DNA from: Clostridiales bacterium
Lineage (GTDB): Bacteria; Bacillota; Clostridia; Oscillospirales; CAG-272
DNA: 52,398 nt
Assembly (NCBI GenBank): GCA_004554105.1
Contig: SFNW01000001.1
Span: 1 to 52,398 of the forward strand
Direction of reading: 5' to 3'
Part shown: positions 8,651-51,941 of the stretch, in pieces
Layout: each line of letters opens with the position of its first letter
Position numbering within the stretch: the first letter of the stretch is position 1
Notes under the pieces: model-generated
Told to the model about the DNA's origin: nothing
Database searches by the model: none
Seen by the model: the letters and a program-made list of their open reading frames with translations, nothing else
Translations under genes and position numbers: made by a program

Positions 8651-8803
8651 AAGTATTTCACCTCCGTTTAAAATGATAAAAAAAGAATCTTTCTACGGTA
8701 AGACACAGATATACCGAAAGAAAGATTACAAAACATTCGTTTATAAGCATCCCTCGGCAGGAAAGCGCACGCGCTTTTACCGTAACCTGCTGTCTTAGGT
8801 AAC
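8651..8803 (-). promoter_or_regulatory. rplJ 5' UTR, likely ribosomal protein L10 leader (autoregulatory) with a terminator-like attenuator hairpin
   Basis: A roughly 150-nt leader runs from the consensus promoter to the SD. Arms at 8686..8694 and 8719..8727 (aatctttct/agaaagatt) are followed on the minus strand by CTTTTTTT. The family call rests on position and knowledge of L10 leaders in Firmicutes and was not tested with a covariance model. Confidence 0.5.
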
Positions 8804-8809
8804 AAGGGG

Positions 8810-8838
8810 ATTATAGCAGACCGAGCCGGACTTGTCAA
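8810..8838 (-). promoter_or_regulatory. Consensus sigma-A promoter of rplJL (TTGACA-17-TATAAT)
   Basis: Both hexamers are perfect and the spacer is 17 nt (read on the minus strand). Confidence 0.75.
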
Positions 8839-32852: not shown

Positions 32853-33641
32853 TCAGCCCGCCTCGGTCGTCGTCTCGGACGTCGTCTCGGGCTCGGTCAC
32901 AACCTCGGTATCTGCCGTCACCGTCTCTGCGGGCGCGACCTTTTCGGTGCCGAGCAGTGTTACCATGCGGTCGGCGAGAATCGCAAGGTCACTGCACCGC
33001 ATATCTTCGCCCTTGCTGCCGGTCAGCCCGTCGAGCAGTCCGTTTTGCTCGGCGCAGTAGAGATATGCGCTCGACCAATCCTCGGGGTCTATCCACAGTT
33101 CGTCGTCCATGCCGACCATGCAGACAAAGACCTTGATCGCGTCCTCAAACTTCACCACCGAATCGGGGTTGAAGTTCCCGCTTTTGTCGCCGTCCATGAT
33201 GCCGTTCTGCGCAGCATAATTGATATAGCCGCTCGCCCAATAGTCTCCCGGCACGTCGGCAAACGACGTCTCGCCCTTCAGTGCCGCCGCCTCCTCGAGT
33301 GCGCCCGATACATCGCAGACAATCGCCGCAAGGCGCGCACGCGTAAACTTGGCGTTGGGGTTGAAATTTGCGGGGAGAAGCCCGCGCTCGGTCATGCGGC
33401 GCACTGCCCCGTCATAGATGGATTCGGTCGTCTCCGCCGTCTCCTCTGTCGGCTCGGTCGTTTGCGCCGATTGCACCGGGTCGGTCGGTATATAGCCGCC
33501 GAGCGACTCGGACACCAGATTCCCGTCATTGTACTTCCGCATACCGTGTTCAATCTGAGAGAGCGGGGCAGAATAGGCAAATGCCGCCACCACCAGCACA
33601 ATGATCAGCAATGCAAGAATCCCTGTCAAAATCTGTCTCAT
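32853..33641 (-). CDS. Membrane-anchored SLH-domain protein
   Basis: The ATG at 33641 lies 6 nt after AAGGAGA. It has an N-terminal TM helix (ILTGILALLIIVLVVAAF) and an SLH-like segment (FADVPGDYWASGYINYAAQNGIMDGDKSGNFNPDSVVKFEDA). Confidence 0.75.
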   Translation of the reverse strand: MRQILTGILALLIIVLVVAAFAYSAPLSQIEHGMRKYNDGNLVSESLGGYIPTDPVQSAQTTEPTEETAETTESIYDGAVRRMTERGLLPANFNPNAKFTRARLAAIVCDVSGALEEAAALKGETSFADVPGDYWASGYINYAAQNGIMDGDKSGNFNPDSVVKFEDAIKVFVCMVGMDDELWIDPEDWSSAYLYCAEQNGLLDGLTGSKGEDMRCSDLAILADRMVTLLGTEKVAPAETVTADTEVVTEPETTSETTTEAG

Positions 33642-41352: not shown

Positions 41353-41523
41353 GATTCCCTCCCGATTCGGAAAAGTCGAATTCATACACTTATCCCATTA
41401 TGAACAATTTAGTATACCATAAGAGCGAAGCAATTTCAATTATTTTTAGCAAATCTTCTTGAAACACAGCGGGTTTTATAGTATTATAAAATTGTATAAT
41501 TATGAAAAGAGGATAAAACCCAC

Positions 41524-41793
41524 ATGAAAGCAGTCATTACGGTCATCGGCAAAGACCAGGTCGGTATCATCGCCGCAGTCAGCGCAAAATGCGCCGAGTA
41601 CGACGTCAACATTCTCGAAATCACGCAGAGCGTCCTTGACCGCTACTTCGCCATGATTATGATCGCGGACATCGACGCGCTGAAGAGCAACTTTTCCGCA
41701 TTCTCCGACGCACTTTCCGCGCTCGGCAAGGAAAAAGGTCTCGAAATCCGCTGTATGCACGAGGACATCTTTGACTCGATGCATACTATCTGA
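41524..41793 (+). CDS. ACT domain-containing protein (UPF0237 family)
   Basis: MKAVITVIGKDQVGIIAAVSAKCAEYDVNILEITQSVLDRYFAMIM. 89 aa. It shows the canonical pairing with a UPF0210 gene. Confidence 0.9.
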   Translation: MKAVITVIGKDQVGIIAAVSAKCAEYDVNILEITQSVLDRYFAMIMIADIDALKSNFSAFSDALSALGKEKGLEIRCMHEDIFDSMHTI

Positions 41794-41814
41794 GCGCTGA
41801 AAGGACATTTTTCC

Positions 41815-43173
41815 ATGATTAACACCGCAGATATTCTCGAAACAATCAATATGATTCGCGAGGAAAACCTCGACATTCGCACGGTCACAATGGGCATTTC
41901 GCTCTACGACTGCGTCAGCGACAGTGTCGACCGCCTCTGCGATAACATTTACGCAAAGCTGATGCGCTGCGCGAAAAACCTCGTCTCCTGCTGCGAGGAG
42001 ATTGAAAAGCTCTACGGCATTCCGATTGTCAACAAGCGCGTGTCGGTCACCCCGATTTCGCAAATCGGCGGTGCCTGCACAAGCGAGGACTACATCAAGA
42101 TTGCCAAGACGCTCGACCGCGCCGCGCACGACCTCGGCATCAACTTCATCGGCGGCTTCTCCGCCCTCGTGCAGAAGGGCATGACCGTCGGCGCGGACAG
42201 GCTGATTGACGCGATTCCCGAAGCCCTTGCCGAGACCGACATGGTCTGCTCGTCGGTCAACGTCGGCTCGACGCGCGCGGGCATCAACATGGACGCCGTC
42301 GCGCGCATGGGCAGAACCGTCAAAGCGACGGCTGAGCTGACGCGCGACCGCGACGCCATCGGCTGTGCAAAATTCGTTGTCTTTGCCAACGCGGTGGACG
42401 ACAACCCGTTCATGGCGGGCGCGTTCCACGGCACGGGCGAGGGCGACTGCGTGATCAACGTCGGCGTCAGCGGTCCCGGCGTCGTCGAAAAGGCGATTCG
42501 CCGCGCGGGCGACTGCGATTTTTCGGCGCTCGCCGACGTCATCAAGAAAACCGCGTTCAAAATCACGCGCGTCGGTCAGCTCGTCGCCTGCGAAGCGGCA
42601 AAGCGGCTCGGCGTCCCCTACGGCATCGTCGACCTCTCGCTCGCGCCCACGCCCGCAATCGGCGACAGCGTCGCCTGCATTCTCGAATCCATGGGACTTG
42701 AGACCTGCGGCGGTCCGGGTACGACGGCGGCACTCGCCATGCTCAACGATGCGGTCAAAAAGGGCGGCGTCATGGCGTCGAGCCATGTCGGCGGCCTCTC
42801 GGGCGCGTTTATCCCGGTCAGCGAGGACGCGGGCATGATTGCCGCGGCGGAACAGGGTGTGCTCACGCTTGAAAAGCTCGAAGCCATGACCGCAGTCTGC
42901 TCGGTCGGGCTTGACATGATTTGCATTCCCGGCGACACCACCGCCGAAACCATCAGCGGCATCATCGCCGACGAAATCGCCATCGGCATGGTCAACGGCA
43001 AAACCACCGCCGTGCGCGTGATTCCCGCGCCCGGCAAGTCGGTCGGCGACCGCGTCGAATTCGGCGGTCTGCTCGGCTATGCACCGGTCATGCGCGTAAG
43101 CCCCGTCTCCTGCGAAAAATTCATCGCCCGCGGCGGACGCATTCCCGCGCCGATTCACTCGCTGAAGAACTAA
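41815..43173 (+). CDS. UPF0210 (DUF711, PFL-like) family protein
   Basis: [24 protein letters not shown] is present. 452 aa. It is adjacent to the ACT partner. Confidence 0.9.
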
Positions 43174-43247
43174 ACAGGGGAGACCGTCGGTCGCCCGCCC
43201 TGTCTTGCGAGAGACCAACGGTCTCCCCGCCAAGGTCTGCGTTGTCC

Positions 43248-43320
43248 GCGGGCGGATATGGAATCCGCCCCTACGGGTTGGCGCACACATTCCGCCGTAG
43301 GGCGGGGGCTTGCTCCCGCC
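43248..43320. repeat. Structured ~72-nt repeat, family C (copy 2)
   Basis: Same orientation and same flanks as 34585..34655. Confidence 0.85.
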
Positions 43321-43361
43321 GCGATAACCGCCGAATATCACGGTCGTAAAGGAGGCTCAAT

Positions 43362-44477
43362 ATGGACGTCAAAATCTACGTCAACCCCGAATACAAGGAC
43401 GCGCTGTGGAGCACGCTTGCGATTCGCGCCATCAACATCGAAATCATGCGCAAGCGCTACACGCCTGTCTTTATCGACGCGCCCGAGGTCGGCGACATCG
43501 ACTTCGACCACCTCTACGCGCCGGGCGAAAAGCGGCTGATGATTTACATCGGCGCGTCGATTGCAGTCACGCCTGCGGTACTCGCCCGCTTCAACGACTG
43601 CGGCGTACACGTCGTCTTTCTCAATTACGAGTCGCCGAAATTGGTCAGCGGACACTCGAAGATTCTGCTCAACTACAAGGACGGTATGCGCAAGGCGATC
43701 AACTACCTCGTCGCCTGCGGCAGGGAAAACATCGCGCTCTACGGCATCAATCCCAATTCCTCGACCGATATGATCAAGGACGCGTTTTTCGCCGACTATC
43801 TCGGTCAGCGCGGCGGTAACCCCTCGCGCGACATTTACTACAACTACGCATCGCTGCGCGGCTGCTACGCCCGCTTTACCGAGAACTGCCACAGCTACAA
43901 CGCGGTCATCTGCGCCAACGACGTCGTCGCGCTCGCGCTTATCTGCCATCTGCGCGAAGCCGGCGTGCGCGTACCCGAGGACCTGTTCGTCGTCAGCTTC
44001 GGCTCAACCGTTCTCGCCTCGATGTCCAATCCCACAATCACCACGGTGGCGGTCGACCACGAGGAGCTGGGCAAGCAGGCAATCCTCGCCTACGCCTATC
44101 TCTACAAAAACCCCGGCGACATCACGCTGACCGCCAAGGTCGACGCCAAGCTGAATATTCGCGCCTCCACCGCCAATATGGAGAATCACGGCAAGGACAT
44201 TTTCGCCTCGTTCCTGCCGCAGACGCCAAACGTCAACTTCTACGACGACCCGGTTACACAGCGCGTTTTTGAGGCGGAAAGCCTGCTGCTCGGCTGCGAC
44301 GAGCTGGACCACGGCATTCTCGCGGGCATTCTCGCAGGCGAAACCTATCCGAGCATCGCAGAGCGGCTGTTCACCTCGGAAAACGTCATCTCCTACCGCA
44401 TCAAGCGAATGTGCAAAGCCACCGGCTGCAACAAAAAATCAGAGCTGGTCGCCCTGCTTTCGCCGTATATCAAATAA
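43362..44477 (+). CDS. Hybrid regulator: LacI-type periplasmic-binding-fold sensor domain with a C-terminal LuxR/GerE-type HTH
   Basis: No N-terminal HTH is present. The central region resembles the Peripla_BP fold (NIALYGINPNSSTDMIKDAFFADY, NAVICANDVVALALICHLREAGVRVPEDLFVVSFG). The C-terminus LDHGILAGILAGETYPSIAERLFTSENVISYRIKRMCKATGCNKKSELVALL is LuxR-type. Confidence 0.7.
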   Translation: MDVKIYVNPEYKDALWSTLAIRAINIEIMRKRYTPVFIDAPEVGDIDFDHLYAPGEKRLMIYIGASIAVTPAVLARFNDCGVHVVFLNYESPKLVSGHSKILLNYKDGMRKAINYLVACGRENIALYGINPNSSTDMIKDAFFADYLGQRGGNPSRDIYYNYASLRGCYARFTENCHSYNAVICANDVVALALICHLREAGVRVPEDLFVVSFGSTVLASMSNPTITTVAVDHEELGKQAILAYAYLYKNPGDITLTAKVDAKLNIRASTANMENHGKDIFASFLPQTPNVNFYDDPVTQRVFEAESLLLGCDELDHGILAGILAGETYPSIAERLFTSENVISYRIKRMCKATGCNKKSELVALLSPYIK

Positions 44478-44535: not shown

Positions 44536-45942
44536 TTATTTTTTGCTTTCCGCCGCAGCGTCTTTTTCCGCCGCTTCATTGGCAAGCCGCTCCTTTGCCG
44601 CGCGATAAGTCGCCTCCACGCGCCGCTTGAGCGCAGTCTCCTCGATTAAACGCTTTGCCTCGTCGCAGGCGTCGTGCCCTTCGTCCGGGCATTTCTTCAA
44701 CCGGATACAGCGCGGAAAAACGGGACACCCGCCGCACAGCGCTCGACTGTTCAGGTATGCGGAAAACTCCGTAACCTTCTCGGCGTTATTGACGCCGCTG
44801 TAGATGTCCCCGACGAACTCACTTTCCGCAAAGTGCTCACACTTTCCGATTTTCCCGCTCGGCAAAATCGTGACGGCACGCGGCGAATCCGCCATGCAAT
44901 GATTGATTTTGATTTCGTTTTCAATCGGTGCCGCTCGCAGCAGCCCCTTGTCCGCGCAATACTGCTCAAACGCAAGCAGTTCCTGCGCACGCGCAAGCCT
45001 TGCCGCAGAATCCTGCGCGACAATCCGATTCTGCGTATAGTCGAACAAAAGATGCGGATAAGCGGAAAGCAGCTCTCGCTCCGAATAACGCTCGCAGAGC
45101 CAATCAACCAGCGCGTACAAATCCTCTTTATTATGTTCGCCCATATTCATACGGACCGAGACGCGAATGCCGCTTTGCAGCAAGCGTTCGATATTATCGG
45201 TTACGACGCGAAACGCACTGCGCCCGTCTTTATAAATAAACGCTTTCGCTTTGTTATAAACGGCTTCGGTTCCGTCCAGCGTAATCTGCACACGGCGCAG
45301 CCGCCAAAGTTCTTTCGCCCGTTGAATCATCTCACTGTCAAACAGATAGCCGTTCGAAACCATTGCCGAACTGTATTCGGCGCCCGCCTCCCGCAAAGCG
45401 GTACAGATGATGTCAATCACGCCCGCATTGTACAGCGGCTCTCCGCCGAACCAATGCAGCGAAATCTTCTCCGAGCCGTGCGTGCGAAGAATAAAATCCG
45501 CAACGTCCCGCGCGGTCTGCTCCGACATGGGGACACGCGCCGTGCCCAGCTCATAGCAGTAAAAGCACCGTGCGTTACAGTCTGTGGTTGTGAAAATCGT
45601 GTAGCCGGACAGCCCCTTGTTTCTCTGCAAATCCCGCGCCAGCGCCCGCGCCTCGCAGGAAAGCTCAATGTCATCATGGTCGGTCGGCACCAAAAACCAT
45701 TTGCGGATAAGCGGCACGGCTGCCCCCTCCGCCGCCACCGTCTCTTTGCGAAGTACGGCGGCTTCGTCGGGCTCAAGCTCAAGCATTTCGCCGGTCAGCG
45801 TATTGTATGCGATGTCCGCGCCGTCCGCTTGGGTTAAAATGCTAAAGGAAATCGGGCGATAGATTTTATCTGTTTCAACCGGCTGCTCGCCAAGCAATTT
45901 TAAAAACAGTTTATCCTGCTGAACCAGTTCAAGCATCCGCAT
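44536..45942 (-). CDS. Radical SAM/SPASM-domain peptide maturase with an N-terminal ~100-aa (RRE/PqqD-like?) extension
   Basis: CNARCFYC (CX3CX2C), FGGEPL and ITLDG are present. SPASM-type Cys pattern HC-X13-G-X4-C followed by CGGCPVFPRCIRLKKC. SD GGAAAGGAAGGAA. The start overlaps the upstream ORF by 14 nt. Confidence 0.85.
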   Translation of the reverse strand: MRMLELVQQDKLFLKLLGEQPVETDKIYRPISFSILTQADGADIAYNTLTGEMLELEPDEAAVLRKETVAAEGAAVPLIRKWFLVPTDHDDIELSCEARALARDLQRNKGLSGYTIFTTTDCNARCFYCYELGTARVPMSEQTARDVADFILRTHGSEKISLHWFGGEPLYNAGVIDIICTALREAGAEYSSAMVSNGYLFDSEMIQRAKELWRLRRVQITLDGTEAVYNKAKAFIYKDGRSAFRVVTDNIERLLQSGIRVSVRMNMGEHNKEDLYALVDWLCERYSERELLSAYPHLLFDYTQNRIVAQDSAARLARAQELLAFEQYCADKGLLRAAPIENEIKINHCMADSPRAVTILPSGKIGKCEHFAESEFVGDIYSGVNNAEKVTEFSAYLNSRALCGGCPVFPRCIRLKKCPDEGHDACDEAKRLIEETALKRRVEATYRAAKERLANEAAEKDAAAESKK

Positions 45943-46654
45943 TTCCTTCCTTTCCGTGCGCTTTCATCCCGTCATACGCAACATGCGCCGCCTCGGGATT
46001 TATAGTACAGAAGAGCAAATAACACGGCACGGCTTGAATCAGGGCGTCTGCAAGTTCCATTTGACGTGCGAGATTGGTAGAATCGCTTACCATGATCTGA
46101 CCAAACAGTTTGGGAACAGCCTCCTCGGCGGAAATACGGCGGATTCCGTTCTCTGTTCCGCGCTTGAGAAAACAAAGACCGCAAAGCGGCACGCGGGTAT
46201 TGACATTATACCCCTCCTTGCCGCACCACGGCGTACCGTAAGCATAAATCTTGCCGTCGATTGCGCGCAGAATCGGCTTGTCCCCGTTGACAATCGTCAC
46301 CTTATCCTCGCCGAAAGCCTTTTGCCATAGGCGAATGTGTGTCGTCTTTCCGGTGCCGCTCGGCGCAGAGAACGCATAGCCGCGCCCCTCATATTCGATG
46401 ACCGCGCAATGCATCAAAAAAGCGTCGTGTGCAAGCGCATAGGCGCAAATTTTACGGTAAACGGCAAGCGATTCGCGCTCTTCATTCGGGATAACCGCGG
46501 TGCCGTCCCCCTCTGCCTGCATATCCGACGCTGTTACGCGAACGCAAAGGTCGACGCGCGGTGCGCTATCGCAGCGATATGTCTCGCACATTCTCTCCAG
46601 CTTCCGATACTGCGGCTCTATATCTATATAAAATCCCGCAATCTGATATACCAT
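45929..46654 (-). CDS. HPr kinase C-terminal-domain-like P-loop protein (putative peptide kinase/accessory protein)
   Basis: 241 aa. It has the Walker A motif SAPSGTGKTT followed by VNGDKPIL and YGTPWCGKEG. It is translationally coupled to the radical SAM gene. Confidence 0.65.
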   Translation of the reverse strand: MVYQIAGFYIDIEPQYRKLERMCETYRCDSAPRVDLCVRVTASDMQAEGDGTAVIPNEERESLAVYRKICAYALAHDAFLMHCAVIEYEGRGYAFSAPSGTGKTTHIRLWQKAFGEDKVTIVNGDKPILRAIDGKIYAYGTPWCGKEGYNVNTRVPLCGLCFLKRGTENGIRRISAEEAVPKLFGQIMVSDSTNLARQMELADALIQAVPCYLLFCTINPEAAHVAYDGMKAHGKEGNADA

Positions 46655-46736
46655 CGTGTTTTCCCCTGTAAATCTATCCTTTTATGCAGCAGAAATACTC
46701 TGTTATCGGTTTCGGTATATAAGCTCCTTAGAAGAA

Positions 46737-46778
46737 CAAAGGAGTGGAAAGACTCCACTCCTTTGCTTTCGGGCAAAA
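46737..46778 (-). terminator. Two adjacent stem-loops between the precursor ORF and the modification genes (partial terminator / mRNA-stabiliser)
   Basis: Minus strand: cttttgc-ccgaaa-gcaaag, then aaaggagtgga-gtctt-tccactccttt followed by GTTCTTCT. They begin 4 nt after the peptide stop codon. Confidence 0.55.
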
Positions 46779-46781
46779 GCC

Positions 46782-46907
46782 TTATGACATTTCTTCTTCG
46801 CCCATATCGGTGGGGCAGCTGGGGTTGTACGTGGGGCAAGTAGAAGAAGCGATGATCTCTACAGTCTCGACGCTAACGAGCTCTGCAGCAGGTGCAACAT
46901 ACTTCAT
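46782..46907 (-). CDS. 41-aa candidate RiPP precursor peptide MKYVAPAAELVSVETVEIIASSTCPTYNPSCPTDMGEEEMS
   Basis: Hand-translated and absent from the ORF track. GGAGG lies 11 nt upstream of the ATG. It has a dedicated promoter and sits directly upstream of the HprK-like and rSAM/SPASM genes. The sequence reads as a leader-like N-half and a Cys/Pro/Thr core. Confidence 0.7.
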   Translation of the reverse strand: MKYVAPAAELVSVETVEIIASSTCPTYNPSCPTDMGEEEMS

Positions 46908-46945
46908 GGTTATGTAATCCTCCAATGTAAATATCCGCATCATGT

Positions 46946-46980
46946 ATGTATACATTACCACATATTTGCCGCTTTGTCAA
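46946..46980 (-). promoter_or_regulatory. Sigma-A promoter of the precursor gene (TTGACA-17-TGgTAATGT, extended -10) overlapped by palindrome ATGTATACAT
   Basis: -35 at 46975-46980 and -10 at 46952-46957. A 10-bp perfect palindrome lies at 46946-46955. Confidence 0.65.
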
Positions 46981-47047
46981 TACAAATCTGTAAGTTTTTT
47001 ATAAATCGCGGCTCATGCAGAGCCGCTGTCCCGAGCGTCCCCTGCGC

Positions 47048-47076
47048 AAAAAAGCACCCCGAAGGGTGCTTTTTTG
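47048..47076 (-). terminator. Rho-independent terminator after the 429-aa ORF
   Basis: aaaaaagcaccc-ttcg-gggtgctttttt (minus strand), 9 nt after the stop codon. It insulates the peptide cassette from upstream transcription. Confidence 0.85.
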
Positions 47077-47084
47077 TATTGGGA

Positions 47085-48374
47085 TTACTGCGCCAAATAA
47101 GCCTTTGCCATGTCGCTGTAATGCATGATCGAGTAGTACAATACGCGAAGGGCTTCGGGATTGCTCAGCGCCTGTCCCGTCGTCGCCGTGTACTCAAAGC
47201 CGTCAAGGTAGTGCGTCTTCAGTACGCGCGACTGCGCTTCCGTGCCGTATCCGCTGTAGATGTTGATCGTCAGCTTCTGTCTCAGGTTCGCCGCCGACAA
47301 CCGATCCAGCTTGACAATCGGCATACTGCCGCTCGTGTTCCACTCGCTGCTCGGAATGACAACCGTCTGCGCTGCGCCCAGATAGTCGGTATACTCGCAG
47401 ACAAACGTAAGGTCGCTGTAGTCCTTGTTCGCTGTATCCGCAGGTCTCAGCGTGATGTTGAGAACGATCTTATCCAGCAGTTCACCCGTGATCTTCGTCG
47501 CCGTGAAGACTGCCGTCTCGCCCTCTACCAGTTCGTCAATCGTTCTCGTTCCGGCCAGCACCGTATCGCTGCTGTAGTCTGCAAGGCTGCTTCTCTGCAG
47601 CTCTGCAGCAAGGCTTGCGTTGACGAGGTTCGCCGTGTTATAGCCGAAATTGGTCTGCGCCGCCGCACCGTAGTTCAACAGTGCCGCCGCGAGATTCATC
47701 TCCGCATCGCCCGTCGCGCCGAACTCATACAGCTTCGCCGCTATCGAGTTGTCGCTCAGCGTTCTGTAATCGACCGTGCCGTCCGCATTGATGCCGTAGA
47801 ATGTTACGCGGATTGTGTTACCCATGCAGGACGCCGGTATGCCGTCCGCAACATAGATATACGTGCTGCCTTCCAAAACCTTATCCGTAATAATCAGGCG
47901 TCTTGCCTTCGCATCCGCCGTCGGGGACGTGATATCGCTTCCGTCCGCGCTGCAAAGGTCAATGACCGCATAGAACGCTTTATACGCATCTACAGTCGCC
48001 TGGCGTGCCTGAATCTTATACTCGACCGAAGACTTCAGTACCAGCGTCTGCTTTGAGAGAATCGCGCTGTTCTCGGTCACCGCATTCGGGCGAACGATTG
48101 CCATGACGGCTGCGGGCGTATACTTTACGATCGTGTCTTCAACGATTGCATCGCCGGAGCGCATATATCTGCCCGTGACGTCGAGCGTGTACTCGCCCGA
48201 AACCGTGATGCCACTGTAGTCGCCTGCGAGGTAGCAATTTTCCGCCGTATAGGTATGCGCGCCGGAGGAAACCTCAAACGTCCCGCAATACCGGCAATTC
48301 TTGCACAAAGTCGGGCTTTTGCGCCTTTTTCGCCGAATTTCGCCGCAAATCGCCCCGCAAGTCGGGCTGCGCAC
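47085..48374 (-). CDS. Hypothetical Thr/Ala/Ser-rich protein with a Cys-rich N-terminus; start uncertain
   Basis: Long ORF whose composition resembles cell-surface proteins. The N-terminus reads TCGAICGEI...LCKNCRYCG. No signal peptide and no strong SD are present at the GTG at 48374. Confidence 0.5.
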   Translation of the reverse strand: MRSPTCGAICGEIRRKRRKSPTLCKNCRYCGTFEVSSGAHTYTAENCYLAGDYSGITVSGEYTLDVTGRYMRSGDAIVEDTIVKYTPAAVMAIVRPNAVTENSAILSKQTLVLKSSVEYKIQARQATVDAYKAFYAVIDLCSADGSDITSPTADAKARRLIITDKVLEGSTYIYVADGIPASCMGNTIRVTFYGINADGTVDYRTLSDNSIAAKLYEFGATGDAEMNLAAALLNYGAAAQTNFGYNTANLVNASLAAELQRSSLADYSSDTVLAGTRTIDELVEGETAVFTATKITGELLDKIVLNITLRPADTANKDYSDLTFVCEYTDYLGAAQTVVIPSSEWNTSGSMPIVKLDRLSAANLRQKLTINIYSGYGTEAQSRVLKTHYLDGFEYTATTGQALSNPEALRVLYYSIMHYSDMAKAYLAQ

Positions 48375-48419
48375 GGCTTCTTCGGGACAGTGTGCCCTGC
48401 CCGCGCTGCCGTCAGGCGC

Positions 48420-48454
48420 AAAAAAAGAAGAGAGCCGAAGCTCTCTTCTCTTTT
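48420..48454 (-). terminator. Rho-independent terminator after the S-layer-type gene
   Basis: Minus-strand hairpin gaagagagc-ttcg-gctctcttc followed by TTTTTTT. Confidence 0.85.
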
Positions 48455-48469
48455 AATTGGTTTGTTCGA

Positions 48470-51400
48470 TTACTTTACAATCTTGTAAACCGTCATCTCG
48501 AGCGCGCCGTTCGAGTAGGTTGCGGTAGCGGTAAGCTCAACCGTAATCTCCTCGTAGTCAGCTTCTTTCTCGAAGGTTGCAAGGTCTGCATAATCGCCGT
48601 ACTCAACGTCTGCGGCAGGAACGATAATCGTCTTGCCTGCGAACTCGTTGACGAAGTTATCGAATACGCCTGCAGCAGGCTCGACAACATCTACAACCTC
48701 ATCTGCAGCAAGTGCATAGAAGAAGTAGCTGTCTGCGTATTCCTGCATCAGAGCGACATCCTTGTAGGTCTCCTGATCCTCTTCGGAAGCGGAATCAGCA
48801 AGGATTGCGTTCTCGTAGTCGTATGCCTTCGTGTCAATACCGGTAACATCGAGCGTTACAACCTTGATATTGATCTTCGTGACATCGTCTGCGCTGATTT
48901 CGGGATCAGCAAGGCCGATCGACTCACCGTCAACGAAGTTCATGCCCTTGAGGTCAACAACCTTGACATTCTCGTCGTCAGCGAGCTTCTTTGCTGCCTC
49001 GGCAACAGAGAGGACGCCCTCTGCGGCAAGAACACCGTTGTCGTTGAGGTACAGGAGGTCGCCGCCGACAACCTTGTTGAATGCGTCAGCATCCTTGTAG
49101 GTCTCAACGTTAACCGTAACGGCGTCAACCTTCTTCAGGGTTCTGAGGTCGAACAGGTTAGCAACGGTTACATCGTAGGTCTCATCGTCAGCGATGTTGA
49201 TATCGACGTCAACATCGGCAAGAGCTACATAGTAGGTAGCATCTGCGCTTGCGCCGACAGACTTGCCCCAGTCAGCAAGCTTCTTGATCTCATCGTTCTT
49301 GAAGGTCGTCTTTGCGCCCGTGATATCCATCAGGATCAGCGAGGAGTTCGCGGAGAGAACCTTAACCTTGTCGAAGCTTACGGATCTGCTTGCCTTCTGT
49401 ACGCCGGTGCGAACTGCAACGGTCGTGCCGTCAACGAGGACGATAACCGTGTCGCTAGCGAGCGATACACGAGCAGCATCAACATCGTTGTCGGTCGTGA
49501 GCATGTTGGTCTTAACGCTGGTATCCGAGAAGGTCAGAGCCTTGTTGGAAGCAACTGCTTCGGTACCGAATGCGAGGAAGTTGCCGGAGTAGATGTCAAC
49601 ACCGGGGGTGTCTTCAAAACCGTCGGTGTTGCCGGCGAGGTCATATACGCCGTTCTTCTCGTCAACTACGAGGAAGATTGCAGCGCCGGTCAGAGCGCCC
49701 TTGATGTCAACAAGCGCTTTATGATCCTTGTACGAAGCACCGATCATGTCTTCATACTTTGCGAGGGTTGCAACGTCCTTGCTCGTCTCGAAGACTTCGT
49801 CCTCAGCGTCAAATGCGCCGTAGTGGAAGTTCTTCAGCGAAGCAAGCTTCCAGTTGCCGGTTGCCTTGTCGAGAACTGCGATAGCAACGTAGCCGTTGTC
49901 ATCGATGTACAGACCCGAGGTCAGCGAAGCGTTGTACTTGGAAACGGTCAGGCCGAGCAGGTCTGCCATGGTCTCCTCATCAACCGTTACAACTGCGTAA
50001 TCGAAGATTGCGCCGTCGCTCGAAGAAGAGCCGTCAACAACTTCCATGTAGACGACGTTGCCGTCAGCCTCAATGTACTTAACGTTGTTCTTGCCTGCGG
50101 TCAGAGCAGCGGTGAACTCGGTTACGTCGAACGCAGCCAGCTTGTCAGCCAGGTCGCCCGCGAACGCGCCCTTGAAGCCGACAGTCTTGTTTGCACCGTC
50201 GATCTTAACGGTCGAGTTCTTGGAGTTCGCGCCGGTCAGTCTGCCTTCCTTGAAGGCACCGTTGTTCTGCGCAACGGTCAGAATGTTATCAACAGCGTTG
50301 TAGCTGTAGAATACGAAGTCGCCGGACTTAACCGATTCGCCCTCGAGCGTAACGGCCATAGCCTTTGCACCTGCATTCTTGGAAACCGAAGTGGTGGACT
50401 CGCTGACCTTTGCAGCCGACTTCGTCGTTGCACCTACGAGGTACTCAACAAAGTTGGTCGACTCGCCGTCGAGGTTCTTATAAGCGGTCGCATCATACTC
50501 ACCGATGGTCGTGAAAGCCACATCCTTGCTGGTGGTCTGATAACGGAGCGTACGGGTGAAGTACTGACCGAACGAATAGGGCGTGTAGAGAACAACTACA
50601 ACGTCGGCAACGACGTCGTCCTTCGTGTCATCGGTGCCCTTGTCGTCAATGGTAACGTCCTCTTCAACGTAGTACTGAACCTTACCGTTGGAGTTGGTAG
50701 CGTTATCGTAGCCGTCCTTGGAGTCATAGACAAATGCGTCAAAGAACGCATCGGCAGCGGTGTTGGAGAATGCCCAACCATCCTCGGTGAAGGTTGCAAC
50801 GACCACAACCGTGTTCTTTGCGGTGAACTTCGTGCCGCCGAGCGTCAGCGTGTCTTCGGTAGCCTTGATGTTGCCTGCGTTGCCGAGGTTTTCAACCGTG
50901 GTAAAGGTCTTGAACTCAGCGTAAACGACAGCAGCCTCAGACTCGTCTGCATCGGTGCTGTACTTCGCCTCGAAGTCCTTAGCAGCGACGTCAACAAGCA
51001 GAGTTACGGGCAGACCCAGGTAACCTACCTTCGGGGTCTTTGCCGTGATGCCGAGGTCAGCAGCTGCGAGCGTCAGAGTGCCGACTTCGGACTCGACGAC
51101 AACGGTATCGACCTCGTCGTCGTTCTCAGCCTCAACGAACTCGGTGATAACGCCTTTGATCTTGCCCGAAGCGTAGCCCGCGTCCTCAAGGAGGGTAACG
51201 CGCTCAATCGGCTTAGCGTTGGGGTTGCCGGAAAGAAGCGTATCAGTCAAACCGGTTTCGCCGGGGTACAGGATCTTGTCGCTCAGCGGATCGACAACTG
51301 CGATCTCGGTGTTGAGCATGTTCCACATGATCTGCGAGGTCTCACCTCTGGTCAGAGGAGCGGTGTAGTTGACCGTCTTTGCAACATCGTCGGTCAGACC

Positions 51401-51871
51401 CAGCTTCTGAGCAGCGAGGATGTAGCCGTAAGGATAGGACATATCCTCGGTCTCGTAGCCGAGCGCGCGGACTGCCATAACGAGCATATCCTGATAGGTG
51501 ATCGGGTCGTTGTAGCCGAAGATACCGTTGCCACGACCTACGACAAGCTTTCTGCCGTAAGCGTAGTCAATCGCGGTGCCGTACTCAACGACATCCTTGA
51601 AGTATGCGCTCGTCTTCTGTGCGTTCCAAACGTCTACCGAAGTCTCTCCGGAAAGCGCCTGAACGAAGAACAGAGCCGCCTGATAACGGGTAACGCCATT
51701 ATCAAGCATCAGATTACCGTTGTCACCCTTCATAATCTTGAGGGCAACAAGGTGCTGCGCAGCGTCGGTATAATCAGCCGTCGTGTCCGCAGCGCCGGTC
51801 GTAATGACTGCTACGCTCAGGATCATGAGCGTCGCCATTACGAGCGAGAGAAATTTCTTGAAGTTTCTCAT
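48470..51871 (-). CDS. Large SLH-domain cell-surface (S-layer-type) protein
   Basis: Signal peptide MRNFKKFLSLVMATLMILSVAVITTGAA. Three N-terminal SLH-like repeats (FKDVVEYGTAIDYAYGRKLVVGRGNGIFGYNDPITYQDMLVMAVRAL and others). About 900 aa of Thr/Val/Asp/Ala-rich sequence follow. Codon usage is strongly biased. Confidence 0.85.
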   Translation of the reverse strand: MRNFKKFLSLVMATLMILSVAVITTGAADTTADYTDAAQHLVALKIMKGDNGNLMLDNGVTRYQAALFFVQALSGETSVDVWNAQKTSAYFKDVVEYGTAIDYAYGRKLVVGRGNGIFGYNDPITYQDMLVMAVRALGYETEDMSYPYGYILAAQKLGLTDDVAKTVNYTAPLTRGETSQIMWNMLNTEIAVVDPLSDKILYPGETGLTDTLLSGNPNAKPIERVTLLEDAGYASGKIKGVITEFVEAENDDEVDTVVVESEVGTLTLAAADLGITAKTPKVGYLGLPVTLLVDVAAKDFEAKYSTDADESEAAVVYAEFKTFTTVENLGNAGNIKATEDTLTLGGTKFTAKNTVVVVATFTEDGWAFSNTAADAFFDAFVYDSKDGYDNATNSNGKVQYYVEEDVTIDDKGTDDTKDDVVADVVVVLYTPYSFGQYFTRTLRYQTTSKDVAFTTIGEYDATAYKNLDGESTNFVEYLVGATTKSAAKVSESTTSVSKNAGAKAMAVTLEGESVKSGDFVFYSYNAVDNILTVAQNNGAFKEGRLTGANSKNSTVKIDGANKTVGFKGAFAGDLADKLAAFDVTEFTAALTAGKNNVKYIEADGNVVYMEVVDGSSSSDGAIFDYAVVTVDEETMADLLGLTVSKYNASLTSGLYIDDNGYVAIAVLDKATGNWKLASLKNFHYGAFDAEDEVFETSKDVATLAKYEDMIGASYKDHKALVDIKGALTGAAIFLVVDEKNGVYDLAGNTDGFEDTPGVDIYSGNFLAFGTEAVASNKALTFSDTSVKTNMLTTDNDVDAARVSLASDTVIVLVDGTTVAVRTGVQKASRSVSFDKVKVLSANSSLILMDITGAKTTFKNDEIKKLADWGKSVGASADATYYVALADVDVDINIADDETYDVTVANLFDLRTLKKVDAVTVNVETYKDADAFNKVVGGDLLYLNDNGVLAAEGVLSVAEAAKKLADDENVKVVDLKGMNFVDGESIGLADPEISADDVTKINIKVVTLDVTGIDTKAYDYENAILADSASEEDQETYKDVALMQEYADSYFFYALAADEVVDVVEPAAGVFDNFVNEFAGKTIIVPAADVEYGDYADLATFEKEADYEEITVELTATATYSNGALEMTVYKIVK

Positions 51872-51941
51872 GGTGTGTTCTCCTTTTCAAAATTTTTTGG
51901 ATACCGCCGCCACCTGTCGGTATCGGTTTTATCCTGATGCT

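Follow-up and report, generated by a model that had tools for sequence, protein, structure and literature searches.

The DNA analyzed here is a 52,398-nt contig stretch from a Clostridiales bacterium (hereafter the window), which carries a three-gene operon on the minus strand. Its first gene is a 41-codon open reading frame (46907..46782), followed by the genes of a 241-aa P-loop protein (45929..46654) and a 468-aa radical SAM/SPASM protein (44536..45942), with the start of the latter overlapping the 241-aa gene by 14 nt. Translation of minus-strand positions 46907..46782 gives MKYVAPAAELVSVETVEIIASSTCPTYNPSCPTDMGEEEMS and a stop codon (TAA, 46782..46784), and the plus-strand reading of 46782-46907 runs into stop codons. 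The features described for this frame in an earlier sequence-only reading are all present on the minus strand: residues 1–22 contain no Cys, the following residues include the two core units S-T-C24-P-T-Y-N28 and P-S-C31-P-T-D34, and the peptide ends in the tail GEEEMS, with Ser41 as the last residue. That reading was silent on the strand, on the HPr-kinase-fold partner, and on the Y-x-x-P motif of the leader.

As for the start codon, an N-terminally extended 57-aa version of the frame (ATG at 46955) is present in public protein collections as an unnamed entry. Since the extension is unconserved in the nearest relative (locus L081), this longer start was rejected; homologues also have MKY, MEKY, or something very similar at their N terminus, and the 41-aa start is thus the likely one. 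Several DNA elements around the gene can be read directly from the sequence. A ribosome-binding site, GGAGG (46919..46923, minus strand), lies 11 nt before the ATG, the corresponding AGGAGG of L081 being located 9 nt before its start. Further upstream, TTGACA (46980..46975), a 17-nt spacer, and TAATGT (46957..46952) form a possible promoter (46952..46980, minus strand), whose TTGACA and TAAT(G/A)T block is kept in L081 while the flanks diverge; it stays a candidate only, because a strict sigma-70 scan of the locus did not call it. The hairpin AGCACCCTTCGGGGTGCT followed by TTTTTT at the end of the upstream gene (47047..47070, minus strand) would mark the upstream boundary of the precursor transcription unit. 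On the 3' side of the precursor gene, a stem-loop (46731..46770, minus strand) is followed by UUUGUUCUUCU. Its folding energy is −30.3 kcal/mol (z = −4.63, with 0 of 200 shuffled sequences folding as well), a terminator scan reports a match within the same region (46756..46741), and the stem sequence is kept in L081 while the flanks diverge. It is likely a partial intrinsic terminator (attenuator), the role of which would be to raise the precursor-to-enzyme ratio. Rfam provides no match near the locus.

According to the comparison with related loci, the 41-codon frame is a real precursor-peptide gene. Orthologous small frames occupy the equivalent position beside homologous enzyme pairs in many loci, and orthologous peptides next to homologous ScmC-like and radical SAM genes are found in L001-L009, L017, L020, and L081-L090. 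Within leader codons 2-22, pN falls below pS in 135 of the 136 pairs compared (mean values 0.29 and 0.63, respectively), and the two other frames of the same region nearly always contain stop codons. Synteny with enzyme pairs and purifying selection, which the sequence-only reading had put forward as checks, are therefore both observed, and its division of a RiPP precursor into a leader of about 22 and a core of about 19 residues is supported as well, with the gene adjoining that of a thioether-type radical SAM/SPASM enzyme. An untranslated chance frame in an intergenic region, which would fit with the shortness of the frame, the lack of a family-model match, and a single-sequence search that returns only the peptide itself, deserves next to no credence. 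Position, leader sequence, ribosome-binding site, and terminator are kept over dozens of loci in two phyla, which, together with the strong excess of pS over pN, the peptides recovered by the leader HMM in related loci, and the number of profile matches given below, contradicts this explanation.

The set of 80 related loci used throughout is defined by the radical SAM gene and was obtained with a profile built from a radical SAM alignment, which was needed because a genome scan with the single radical SAM sequence found no relatives. The layout of precursor, ScmC-like gene, and radical SAM gene is found again in dozens of metagenome-derived genomes of Clostridia and Bacteroidales. A leader HMM yields 52 peptides in the 80 loci, and a profile made from 34 family peptides matches 1061 clusters of unnamed peptides in public data sets. 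Neither Pfam nor NCBIfam (E ≤ 0.01) matches the peptide or six other family peptides, and relaxing the NCBIfam threshold to E ≤ 10 adds only two spurious peptide matches, in agreement with the earlier remark that leader and core resemble no described family. Judged by sequence, the precursor is a member of a large unnamed peptide family of gut and rumen bacteria. A literature search on the string DVITTS, on SynChlorMet, and on HPr kinase/HprK combined with radical SAM, SPASM, RiPP, or ranthipeptide found nothing relevant.

The leader, delimited by the leader HMM, the alignment, and pN/pS, comprises codons 1-22 (46842..46907, minus strand; MKYVAPAAELVSVETVEIIASS) and follows the pattern MKY-x-x-P…S22, which is under purifying selection; its boundary with the core (22/23) is approximate, and the exact cut position may differ. 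Its motif Y3-x-x-P6 reads Y3-V-A-P6 in the window peptide. Among 34 aligned peptides, Ser22 is invariant, and K2 and E9 are conserved in at least 90%. The more general form [YFW]xxP occurs in 35 of 58 genome-locus peptides, with a large subfamily carrying Y-x-x-A instead.

The core (codons 23-41; 46785..46841, minus strand; TCPTYNPSCPTDMGEEEMS) was assigned from the translation and from family enrichment. It is hypervariable across the family, with 1 to 4 Cys residues per peptide, and what is retained is a Cys that has Asp, Glu, or Asn three or four positions behind it (+3 or +4) and, in many cases, Pro directly after it (+1); no core residue other than Cys comes close to invariance in the alignment. 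Among 46 unique genome-locus cores, D/E/N is found at Cys+3 in 56 of 86 cases, where about 30 would be expected (z = 6.1), and there is a similar excess of Pro at Cys+1 (z = 6.6), while 116 further database cores give D/E/N z-scores of 10.5 at +3 and 9.5 at +4; these z-scores take no account of how closely the peptides are related, which inflates them, those of the database set especially. The motif C-x2-3-[DEN] is present in 51/58 genome-locus and 113/119 database peptides. In the MAFFT alignment C31-P-T-D34 falls into the family C-P-x-D column, C31 being conserved in at least 90% of the 34 peptides; the first window motif has Tyr at Cys24+3 and Asn only at +4. Both window motifs fit the family pattern, with Cys24 and Cys31 as the predicted donors and Asn28 (+4) and Asp34 (+3) as the predicted acceptors.

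With respect to the earlier claims on the core, the Cys-to-Asn/Asp spacing has turned out to be a family-wide signal, and two others did not hold. The family does not conserve the duplicated S/T-C-P-T unit in that form, and close-clade cores rule it out as the conserved unit: the precursor beside the closest radical SAM protein (83% identical) has the core LCPEEIDGCPDDWS. Conservation of the terminal Ser fails likewise, as only 2 of 8 close-clade peptides have it (the window and L081). The remaining 6, from L001, L085, L086, L087, L089, and L090, lack it though the partner gene is present, which excludes it as a universal feature; it recurs in 26/116 database cores, and a large subfamily ends in …CPTDLS.

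The 468-aa protein is a CteB-like radical SAM/SPASM peptide maturase with a putative N-terminal RRE-like domain, based on Pfam, NCBIfam, and structure comparison. It matches PF04055 (62.8 bits) and PF13353. Its CxxxCxxC motif (C122, C126, and C129) is invariant in 44 homologues, as are the SPASM cysteines C349, C368, C403, C406, C412, C418, and C426, which together with G363 give the pattern C-x13-G-x4-C. The score stays below the cut-off of every NCBIfam family, with TIGR04463 the best (137 bits vs 525), PapB family NF047865 at 96.1 bits vs 340, and SCIFF-maturase family TIGR03974 at 46.6 bits vs 425; the best matches are maturases of Cys-containing peptides, PapB included. Among solved structures, the nearest in sequence is CteB (5wgg/5why, E = 3.4e-22), and a Foldseek search with the structure model (pLDDT 90.8) also retrieves CteB (1.2e-14 over 454 columns), as well as SkfB, SuiB, and anSME, with CteB, SuiB, and anSME being SPASM enzymes. 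As for the N-terminal domain, a Pfam search with the first 114 aa finds no match. In the model, residues 34-105 form three strands and then three helices at high pLDDT, which is the topology expected of an RRE, and the domain may be called RRE-like on this ground. For the six active-site-proximal positions of CteB named in PMC10288494, a hand-counted alignment sets Y130, F165, V195, T221, E369, and H370 against F, F, T, S, H, and Q, so that they are only partly shared.

The similarity of the enzyme and the motif statistics point to thioether chemistry, in which each Cys would be linked to the carboxylate or amide residue behind it. At the level of sequence, thioether formation and other radical SAM outcomes, attachment at C-alpha and at C-beta/gamma, and both directions of the link look alike. 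With precursor and enzymes unchanged, the maturase might instead form C-alpha thioethers of the sactipeptide type, a reversed beta-thioether of the NxxC type between Asn28 and Cys31, or a C-C cross-link, or it might epimerize residues. This appears rather unlikely, though it is the most serious of the competing explanations. The fold matches include SkfB (a sactisynthase), SuiB (Lys-Trp C-C), and anSME, no family cut-off is reached, and the CteB active-site positions are shared in part, all of which is compatible with another chemistry. So is the NxxC string N28-P-S-C31 of the window core, along with an enrichment of D/E/N at Cys-4 (z = 2.2 for genome-locus and 6.7 for database cores, inflated in the same way). 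However, a side-chain acceptor predicts a marked preference for residues with a carboxylate or amide at a fixed distance (+3/+4) from Cys, as is observed, and Cys is the sole near-invariant residue of the core. To our knowledge, sactipeptide acceptors show no carboxylate or amide preference of that kind.

Regarding the 241-aa protein, its AlphaFold2 model (pLDDT 95.2) has an HPr-kinase/PEPCK fold, with the HprK/P catalytic domain and PEPCK as top Foldseek matches (E about 7e-6). Its sole NCBIfam match is a weak one to ScmC (TIGR04249, 22.6 bits vs cut-off 125). A local Pfam search of the window protein returns no match; PF27840:ScmC is on record for its orthologues in L081-L091, and PF07475 weakly matches 4 of 49 partner members. 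The ScmC-like profile finds only generic P-loop matches among PDB sequences, and no bona fide HprK gene for a direct alignment occurs among the sequences searched. Invariant positions of the partner alignment, which include the Walker A motif, are H82, G100, G102, K103, T105, H106, N123, D125, and K126. Lasso-peptide kinases carry a His-Lys-Asp-Asp motif (PMC9266682), of which only H82, K103, and D125 are clearly retained here, the last within N123-G-D125-K126. At E ≤ 1e-3, 8199 representative clusters match the partner. The gene is detected in 41 of the 80 related loci and is therefore not obligatory for the wider family. Its product is a candidate peptide Ser kinase using ATP, as the fold would suggest, or else an accessory protein.

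A different use of the P-loop protein would be to activate the Asp/Glu carboxylate as an acyl phosphate, so that the Cys three residues upstream attacks it and closes a thiolactone ring, leaving some other role to the radical SAM enzyme. The coincidence of a Cys-x-x-acid motif with an ATP-binding partner fits such a scheme, as does the membership in the fold family of PEPCK, an enzyme that phosphorylates an enolate derived from a carboxylate; nothing further speaks for it. It is very improbable nevertheless, given that Asn, which cannot be activated in this way, is accepted at the acid position, and that about half of the related loci have an unchanged motif and no P-loop gene. We know of no carboxylate kinase with the HprK/PEPCK fold.

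Taken together, the minus-strand precursor, the HPr-kinase-fold partner, and the radical SAM/SPASM maturase suggest a product with ranthipeptide-like thioether rings and possibly a phosphorylated Ser, a reading to which we give a probability of roughly 0.6. The maturase would bind the leader through its RRE-like domain and, for each Cys, remove a side-chain hydrogen from the residue located 3-4 positions further on. Joining of the Cys sulfur to the carbon concerned would then produce two small thioether rings, from C24 to N28 and from C31 to D34, in ranthipeptide-type chemistry as carried out by PapB (Cys-Asp/Glu), at a tighter spacing. The ScmC-like protein would most likely phosphorylate a Ser of the precursor at the expense of ATP, by analogy with LppK of the linear polyphosphorylated peptides (LPPs) and with PadeK/ThcoK of paeninodin-type lasso peptides, candidates being the invariant junction residue Ser22 and, in the window peptide, also Ser41. 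Removal of the leader and export would use genes outside the 52-kb window, since a SipW-type peptidase, PqqD, and an ABC exporter are absent from it; tblastn finds in the window no discrete RRE, SpI-like peptidase, MsbA-like exporter, or NTP transferase.

PapB (freyrasin) and CteB (thermocellin/SCIFF) are radical SAM/SPASM maturases that are guided by a leader, as is proposed here, and that have an N-terminal RRE-like domain to which the putative one of the 468-aa protein would correspond; CteB is the nearest solved relative by both sequence and fold, and PapB is among the best NCBIfam matches. According to PMC9413430, PapB joins Cys to Asp (or Glu) residues by thioether links, and the cores are alike in that a Cys is followed by Asp/Glu at a fixed short distance. 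They differ in spacing: the family motif is C-x2-3-[D/E/N] with Pro at +1, whereas freyrasin reportedly has six C-x3-D repeats. In contrast to both systems, the leader here is of another family and an HPr-kinase-fold partner is present. The links of CteB thermocellin/SCIFF are Cys-Thr. A SCIFF assignment was rejected for the window peptide, which has 2 Cys residues and no TIGR03973 match, and whose maturase is far under the TIGR03974 cut-off. NxxC peptides share a small i to i+3 thioether ring with an Asn side chain, for which the window offers N28-P-S-C31; the streptococcal enzyme NxxcB reportedly forms an Asn C-beta to Cys thioether (Caruso et al. 2019). The orientation of this link is opposite to the family signal, where the acceptor comes after the Cys. 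The target of anaerobic sulfatase-maturase-type enzymes is C-x-P-x-R, which was also rejected, as Pro is found here at +1 and not at +2, and no Arg follows.

Another set of likenesses concerns the LPPs (Popov et al., Nat Commun 2026, PMC13381572), whose leaders carry a [Y/W]xxP RRE-binding motif and whose HprK-like kinase phosphorylates a conserved junction Ser. The family shares the Y-x-x-P leader and the conserved Ser that ends a conserved block, and the window has a P-loop partner whose fold is HprK-like. More distant family loci additionally contain a lasso-type PqqD/RRE (NF033536, 5e-10), an archaeal/SipW-type signal-peptidase-like gene (TIGR02228, 1e-8), an ABC exporter, and, in some cases, a nucleotidyltransferase of PF14907. 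Over the 80 related loci, PqqD is found in 43, SpI-like genes in 24, and ABC genes in 16; PF14907 is detected in L092 and L093, and tblastn adds matches in L049 and L066. By analogy, the presence of the LPP gene set in distant family loci makes the partner probably a Ser kinase. There are also differences. As described (PMC13381572), LPP clusters have no radical SAM enzyme, come predominantly from Bacillota, and encode long, Cys-independent cores, whereas every locus of the present family has a radical SAM/SPASM gene, cores are short and built on Cys and acidic residues, and the hosts are Clostridia and Bacteroidales. The LPP product is linear, with no cross-linking enzyme, unlike the window operon with its radical SAM/SPASM maturase; the window cluster also lacks the RRE, peptidase, exporter, and transferase, and its partner is of the ScmC type (PF27840).

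These likenesses bear on the question of which step defines the class. Phosphorylation of Ser by the HPr-kinase-fold protein might be the defining step, as in LPPs, with the radical SAM enzyme adding a secondary modification. The Y-x-x-P motif and the conserved Ser that closes the conserved block recall the LPP motif YxxPxVLxHQxIxFETxxS, the more distant loci carry the full LPP accessory set, and the window peptide and the …CPTDLS subfamily end in Ser like the substrates of paeninodin-type kinases. However, the radical SAM gene defines all 80 loci and the ScmC-like gene is detected in only 41, the conserved core feature is a Cys with an acidic residue rather than a Ser, and the terminal Ser is missing from 6 of 8 close-clade peptides. 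This reading is improbable.

Paeninodin-type kinases (PadeK, ThcoK) are HPr-kinase-related, act on the precursor, and phosphorylate its C-terminal Ser (PMC9266682). The window resembles their clusters in the HPr-kinase-fold partner and the terminal Ser of the peptide, but lacks both a lasso cyclase and a B2 protease; close-clade peptides do not conserve the terminal Ser, and the His-Lys-Asp-Asp motif is recognizable only in part. The predicted SynChlorMet (SCM) cassette combines the same trio of protein kinds: an HprK-like ScmC, a PqqD-like ScmD, and radical SAM/SPASM ScmE/F. Scores are, however, far under the cut-offs, not only for ScmC (22.6 vs 125) but also for the weak matches of the related-locus PqqD to ScmD (30 vs 100) and of the L092 radical SAM protein to ScmE (36 vs 400), and both the taxa and the precursor are different.

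A broader proposal can be made only tentatively, and is itself somewhat doubtful. It would treat the family as an undescribed RiPP class, abundant among gut and rumen anaerobes and with the window operon as a founding example, in which a lasso/LPP-type Y-x-x-P leader recruits two enzymes, one of the radical SAM/SPASM type and one kinase with the HPr-kinase fold, to make phosphorylated, acidic peptides bridged by i to i+3/i+4 thioethers from Cys to Asp, Glu, or Asn, which may act together with the large protein encoded upstream or on the cell envelope. If the interpretation given here is correct, more than 1000 unnamed small peptides from Clostridia and Bacteroidales of the human gut and the rumen are members of a single biosynthetic family, along with thousands of function-unassigned ScmC-like proteins, for which a testable function would be available. 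Thioether-ring chemistry would extend to a tighter Cys-x-x-acid motif, and radical SAM cross-linking would be linked with the HprK-kinase/SipW-peptidase/lasso-type RRE toolkit of the LPPs (2026), so far a separate topic. In Table 1 of a Hungate1000 mining study (PMC13289728), the rule for ranthipeptides is TIGR03973, and a rule in the form given there would miss this precursor family. The three-gene version in the window is minimal, and convenient for heterologous reconstitution.

Directly upstream of the precursor gene lies the gene of a function-unassigned 429-aa protein (47085..48374, minus strand), which has no Pfam or NCBIfam match and whose membership in the system is uncertain. Relatives of its C-terminal domain (about 300 aa) are also encoded just ahead of the precursor gene elsewhere: tblastn and jackhmmer link the protein to others that end 16-126 nt before the precursor (L008, L011, L017, L028, L036, L038, L039, L047, L053, and L066).

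The 41-aa ORF proposed by the sequence-only reading exists: the minus strand from 46907 to 46782 translates exactly into MKYVAPAAELVSVETVEIIASSTCPTYNPSCPTDMGEEEMS followed by a stop, and the plus-strand reading of 46782-46907 is interrupted by stop codons. A ribosome-binding site, GGAGG, lies 11 nt 5' of the minus-strand ATG, and the stop codon is followed by a stem-loop (−30.3 kcal/mol, z = −4.6, with 0/200 shuffles as stable) and a U-rich stretch. Public protein collections hold a nameless 57-aa version of the ORF with an extra N-terminus; this extension has diverged in the nearest relative, and homologues start with MKY, MEKY or near variants. The next two genes on the minus strand encode a 241-aa P-loop partner (46654..45929) and a 468-aa radical SAM (rSAM) enzyme (45942..44536), with an overlap of 14 nt. 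Because a hairpin with a T-run (47070..47047, minus strand) terminates the gene upstream of the precursor and the downstream neighbor is a convergent regulator gene, the unit comprises three genes. The latter gene (43362-44477, plus strand), convergent to the rSAM gene, encodes a 371-aa regulator-like protein with a LacI-type ligand-binding domain (PF13377), no match for an N-terminal LacI helix-turn-helix, and a C-terminus resembling, by eye, a LuxR/GerE-type helix-turn-helix. It occupies the same position in the related loci L001, L002, L085-L087, and L089-L091.

An alignment-based genome scan yielded 80 loci, nearly all in Clostridia and Bacteroidales genomes recovered from gut and rumen metagenomes, and in 41 of them a ScmC-like gene adjoins the rSAM gene. 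Searching these loci by peptide tblastn and then with an iterated leader HMM gave 52 small ORFs, mostly directly adjoining the enzyme genes. All 52 share a conserved leader of ~22 residues with a final Ser and a short acidic, Cys-bearing, highly variable tail; six more close relatives, obtained by exact protein look-up, have the identical design. For 17 genes of the close clade, leader codons 2-22 show pN below pS in 135 of 136 pairs (pS 0.63, pN 0.29), and the other two frames of the region are nearly always closed by stops. Conservation beside homologous enzyme pairs and purifying selection in this frame, whose absence the sequence-only reading had named as refuting it, are both present and favor a real gene; the precursor gene is conserved and under selection. 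Among 34 aligned peptides, S22 never varies, and K2, E9, and C31 each reach at least 90% conservation. The corresponding profile retrieves 1061 peptide clusters from a collection of 5.8 billion proteins, none with a name other than "hypothetical protein" or with a Pfam domain. No description of the family was found in the literature, nor any among curated family models, and the TIGR03973 rule of a recent rumen mining study (PMC13289728) would miss it. We consider the peptide a RiPP precursor with a probability of about 0.93. Two to five precursor genes with one leader and different cores occur in L014, L017, L046, L055 (five), L073, L074, and L079.

Next to the closest rSAM, which is 83% identical, the precursor core reads LCPEEIDGCPDDWS; in other close relatives the cores are TCPEEIDGCPDNWE, SCPYEIDGCPDNWE, SCRLDCLTDMGEIEM, GCSRDNTLPVDPEGCTDD, GNTQPPRPNCPNELPQEEI, and STCPDDYVICSCIEFEE. 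Because these cores differ, the duplicated S/T-C-P-T motif, initially seen as the hallmark of the core, lacks conservation; the terminal Ser, also expected to be kept, is rare (2/8 close-clade peptides). The proposed spacing from Cys to Asn/Asp, by comparison, fits a family rule, with C31-P-T-D34 as the canonical form and C24-P-T-Y-N28 as the +4 form. Enrichment was tested by shuffles with Cys positions held fixed, which disregard relatedness. Among 46 unique genome-locus cores, D/E/N at Cys+3 (56/86 vs ~30 expected, z = 6.1) and Pro at Cys+1 (24/86, z = 6.6) are enriched, both z-scores being inflated by kinship. For 116 further unique database cores the D/E/N z-scores, inflated most by kinship, are 10.5 at +3 and 9.5 at +4, and the likewise inflated value for Pro at Cys+1 is 7.6. 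The pattern C-x2-3-[DEN] is present in 51/58 genome-locus and 113/119 database peptides; the rule persists across very different cores despite the inflated z-scores. The terminal Ser of the window peptide recurs in 26/116 database cores. A populous database subfamily (including peptides P0303, P0314, P0331, P0339, P0349, P0355, and P0367) shares the core pattern …DWCP-x-Y-x-x-PHPCP-x-[DE]-LS, with Ser last.

The 468-aa enzyme has a radical SAM domain, and its CxxxCxxC motif and seven C-terminal Cys are kept without exception across 44 homologues. It reaches no NCBIfam family at the curated cut-off; the best matches are Cys-peptide maturases, namely TIGR04463 (137 bits vs 525), then Clo7bot, CefB, and PapB (96 bits vs 340). 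The thioether synthase CteB is the nearest solved protein by sequence profile (E = 3.4e-22) and also the best fold match of the confident AlphaFold2 model (pLDDT 90.8; 1.2e-14 over 454 columns), followed by TigE, SuiB, SkfB, and anSME. The operon contains a CteB-like rSAM/SPASM enzyme. The modeled N-terminus forms a three-strand, three-helix domain, whose predicted topology is that expected of an RRE. PF05402 (PqqD) is recorded for the rSAM homologues P0089, P0099, P0107, P0111, and P0113 (530-533 aa); in P0089, the sequence inspected, it is a C-terminal fusion besides the N-terminal domain. Two or three tandem rSAM paralogues occur in L009, L020, L027, L059, L074, and L077.

In the proposed pathway the rSAM N-terminal domain would bind the precursor leader, and radical chemistry would link each Cys, through a thioether, to the side chain found 3-4 residues downstream, as PapB does between Cys and Asp/Glu (PMC9413430). 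The logic is ranthipeptide-like, yet the window system falls outside the PapB, SCIFF, and SCM families. The main rival keeps the same parts and changes the chemistry, to C-alpha links, a reverse N28-C31 link or non-thioether products. We lean slightly towards ranthipeptide-like thioethers.

Among NCBIfam models, the 241-aa partner matches only ScmC, from the predicted SynChlorMet cassette, and that weakly (22.6 bits vs 125); its orthologues carry PF27840:ScmC on record. The closest folds to its model (pLDDT 95.2) are those of the catalytic domain of HPr kinase/phosphorylase and of PEP carboxykinase (E about 7e-6). Walker A residues G100, G102, K103, and T105 are invariant in 49 homologues, as are H82, H106, N123, D125, and K126; the partner is an HprK-fold P-loop protein with an intact nucleotide-binding site; its family spans 8199 representative clusters at E <= 1e-3. 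Lasso-peptide kinases with an HprK-like fold phosphorylate their precursors on a conserved C-terminal Ser (PMC9266682), and the kinase of linear polyphosphorylated peptides (LPPs), described in 2026, adds several phosphates to a conserved Ser three residues past the cleavage site (PMC13381572). By analogy, the partner might phosphorylate Ser at S22 or S41, although we hold its assignment as a Ser kinase only tentatively.

LPPs and the window system have leader logic and an HprK-fold partner in common. The LPP leader motif is YxxPxVLxHQxIxFETxxS (PMC13381572), and the window leader similarly has Y3-x-x-P6 and the invariant S22 closing the conserved block; 35/58 genome-locus peptides carry [YFW]xxP, a large subfamily having Y-x-x-A instead. 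LPP clusters are housed in capsular polysaccharide loci, and the LPP paper makes no mention of radical SAM enzymes (PMC13381572). Since an rSAM is present and LPP accessory genes are absent from the window, the system is not an LPP.

Distant loci are richer in accessory genes: a stand-alone PqqD-like protein (43/80 loci; best model a Bacillota lasso-peptide PqqD chaperone, 5e-10), a ~150-aa peptidase (24/80; best models archaeal-type signal peptidase I, 1e-8, and SipW), and an ABC exporter (16/80). L092 and L093 also encode a PF14907 nucleotidyltransferase, to which tblastn finds matches in L049 and L066. Together these correspond to the accessory genes of LPP clusters (PMC13381572). The gene order in L092 is ScmC-like, rSAM, peptide (…HPCPTDLS), PqqD, SpI-like peptidase, ABC exporter, an unknown gene, and PF14907. 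None of PqqD, SpI-like peptidase, ABC exporter, and PF14907 was found within the 52-kb window, and its clade therefore represents a minimal three-gene version. P0314, from the Ser-terminated subfamily, sits in a full cluster with PF14907. DUF6462, TnpV, and a weak MobV-relaxase match flank the full-set cluster in L092 (488-1181 and 9771-11216) and L093, which points to carriage by a mobile element.

Directly upstream of the precursor, a minus-strand gene (47085-48374) encodes a 429-aa protein without a family match. Its ~300-aa C-terminal domain also closes larger proteins, some of which begin with a signal-like sequence; these proteins stop 16-126 nt before the precursor in L008, L011, L017, L028, L036, L038, L039, L047, L053, and L066. 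This synteny in divergent taxa suggests that the domain may be functionally linked to the peptide system. The window copy has no obvious signal peptide and starts with GTG, in another frame, 96 nt past the stop of the gene for a 1133-aa SLH protein (48470-51871, minus strand), two genes upstream of the precursor. A gene for a ~260-aa SLH-domain protein lies between precursor and enzymes in L006-L009 and L017, and a 43-48% identical match to these proteins is located at about 32907-33422 of the window. SLH proteins alongside the peptide system hint at a cell-envelope connection.

The GC-rich window also holds very long antisense ORFs at 41500-43341 (minus), 48392-51937 (plus; 1181 aa opposite the SLH gene), and 44674-45837 (plus; 387 aa opposite the rSAM gene), which look like composition artefacts, not genes. 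Rfam matches across the window are a tRNA gene (1607-1680) and a ribosomal protein L10 leader (8672-8817) only, both on the minus strand.
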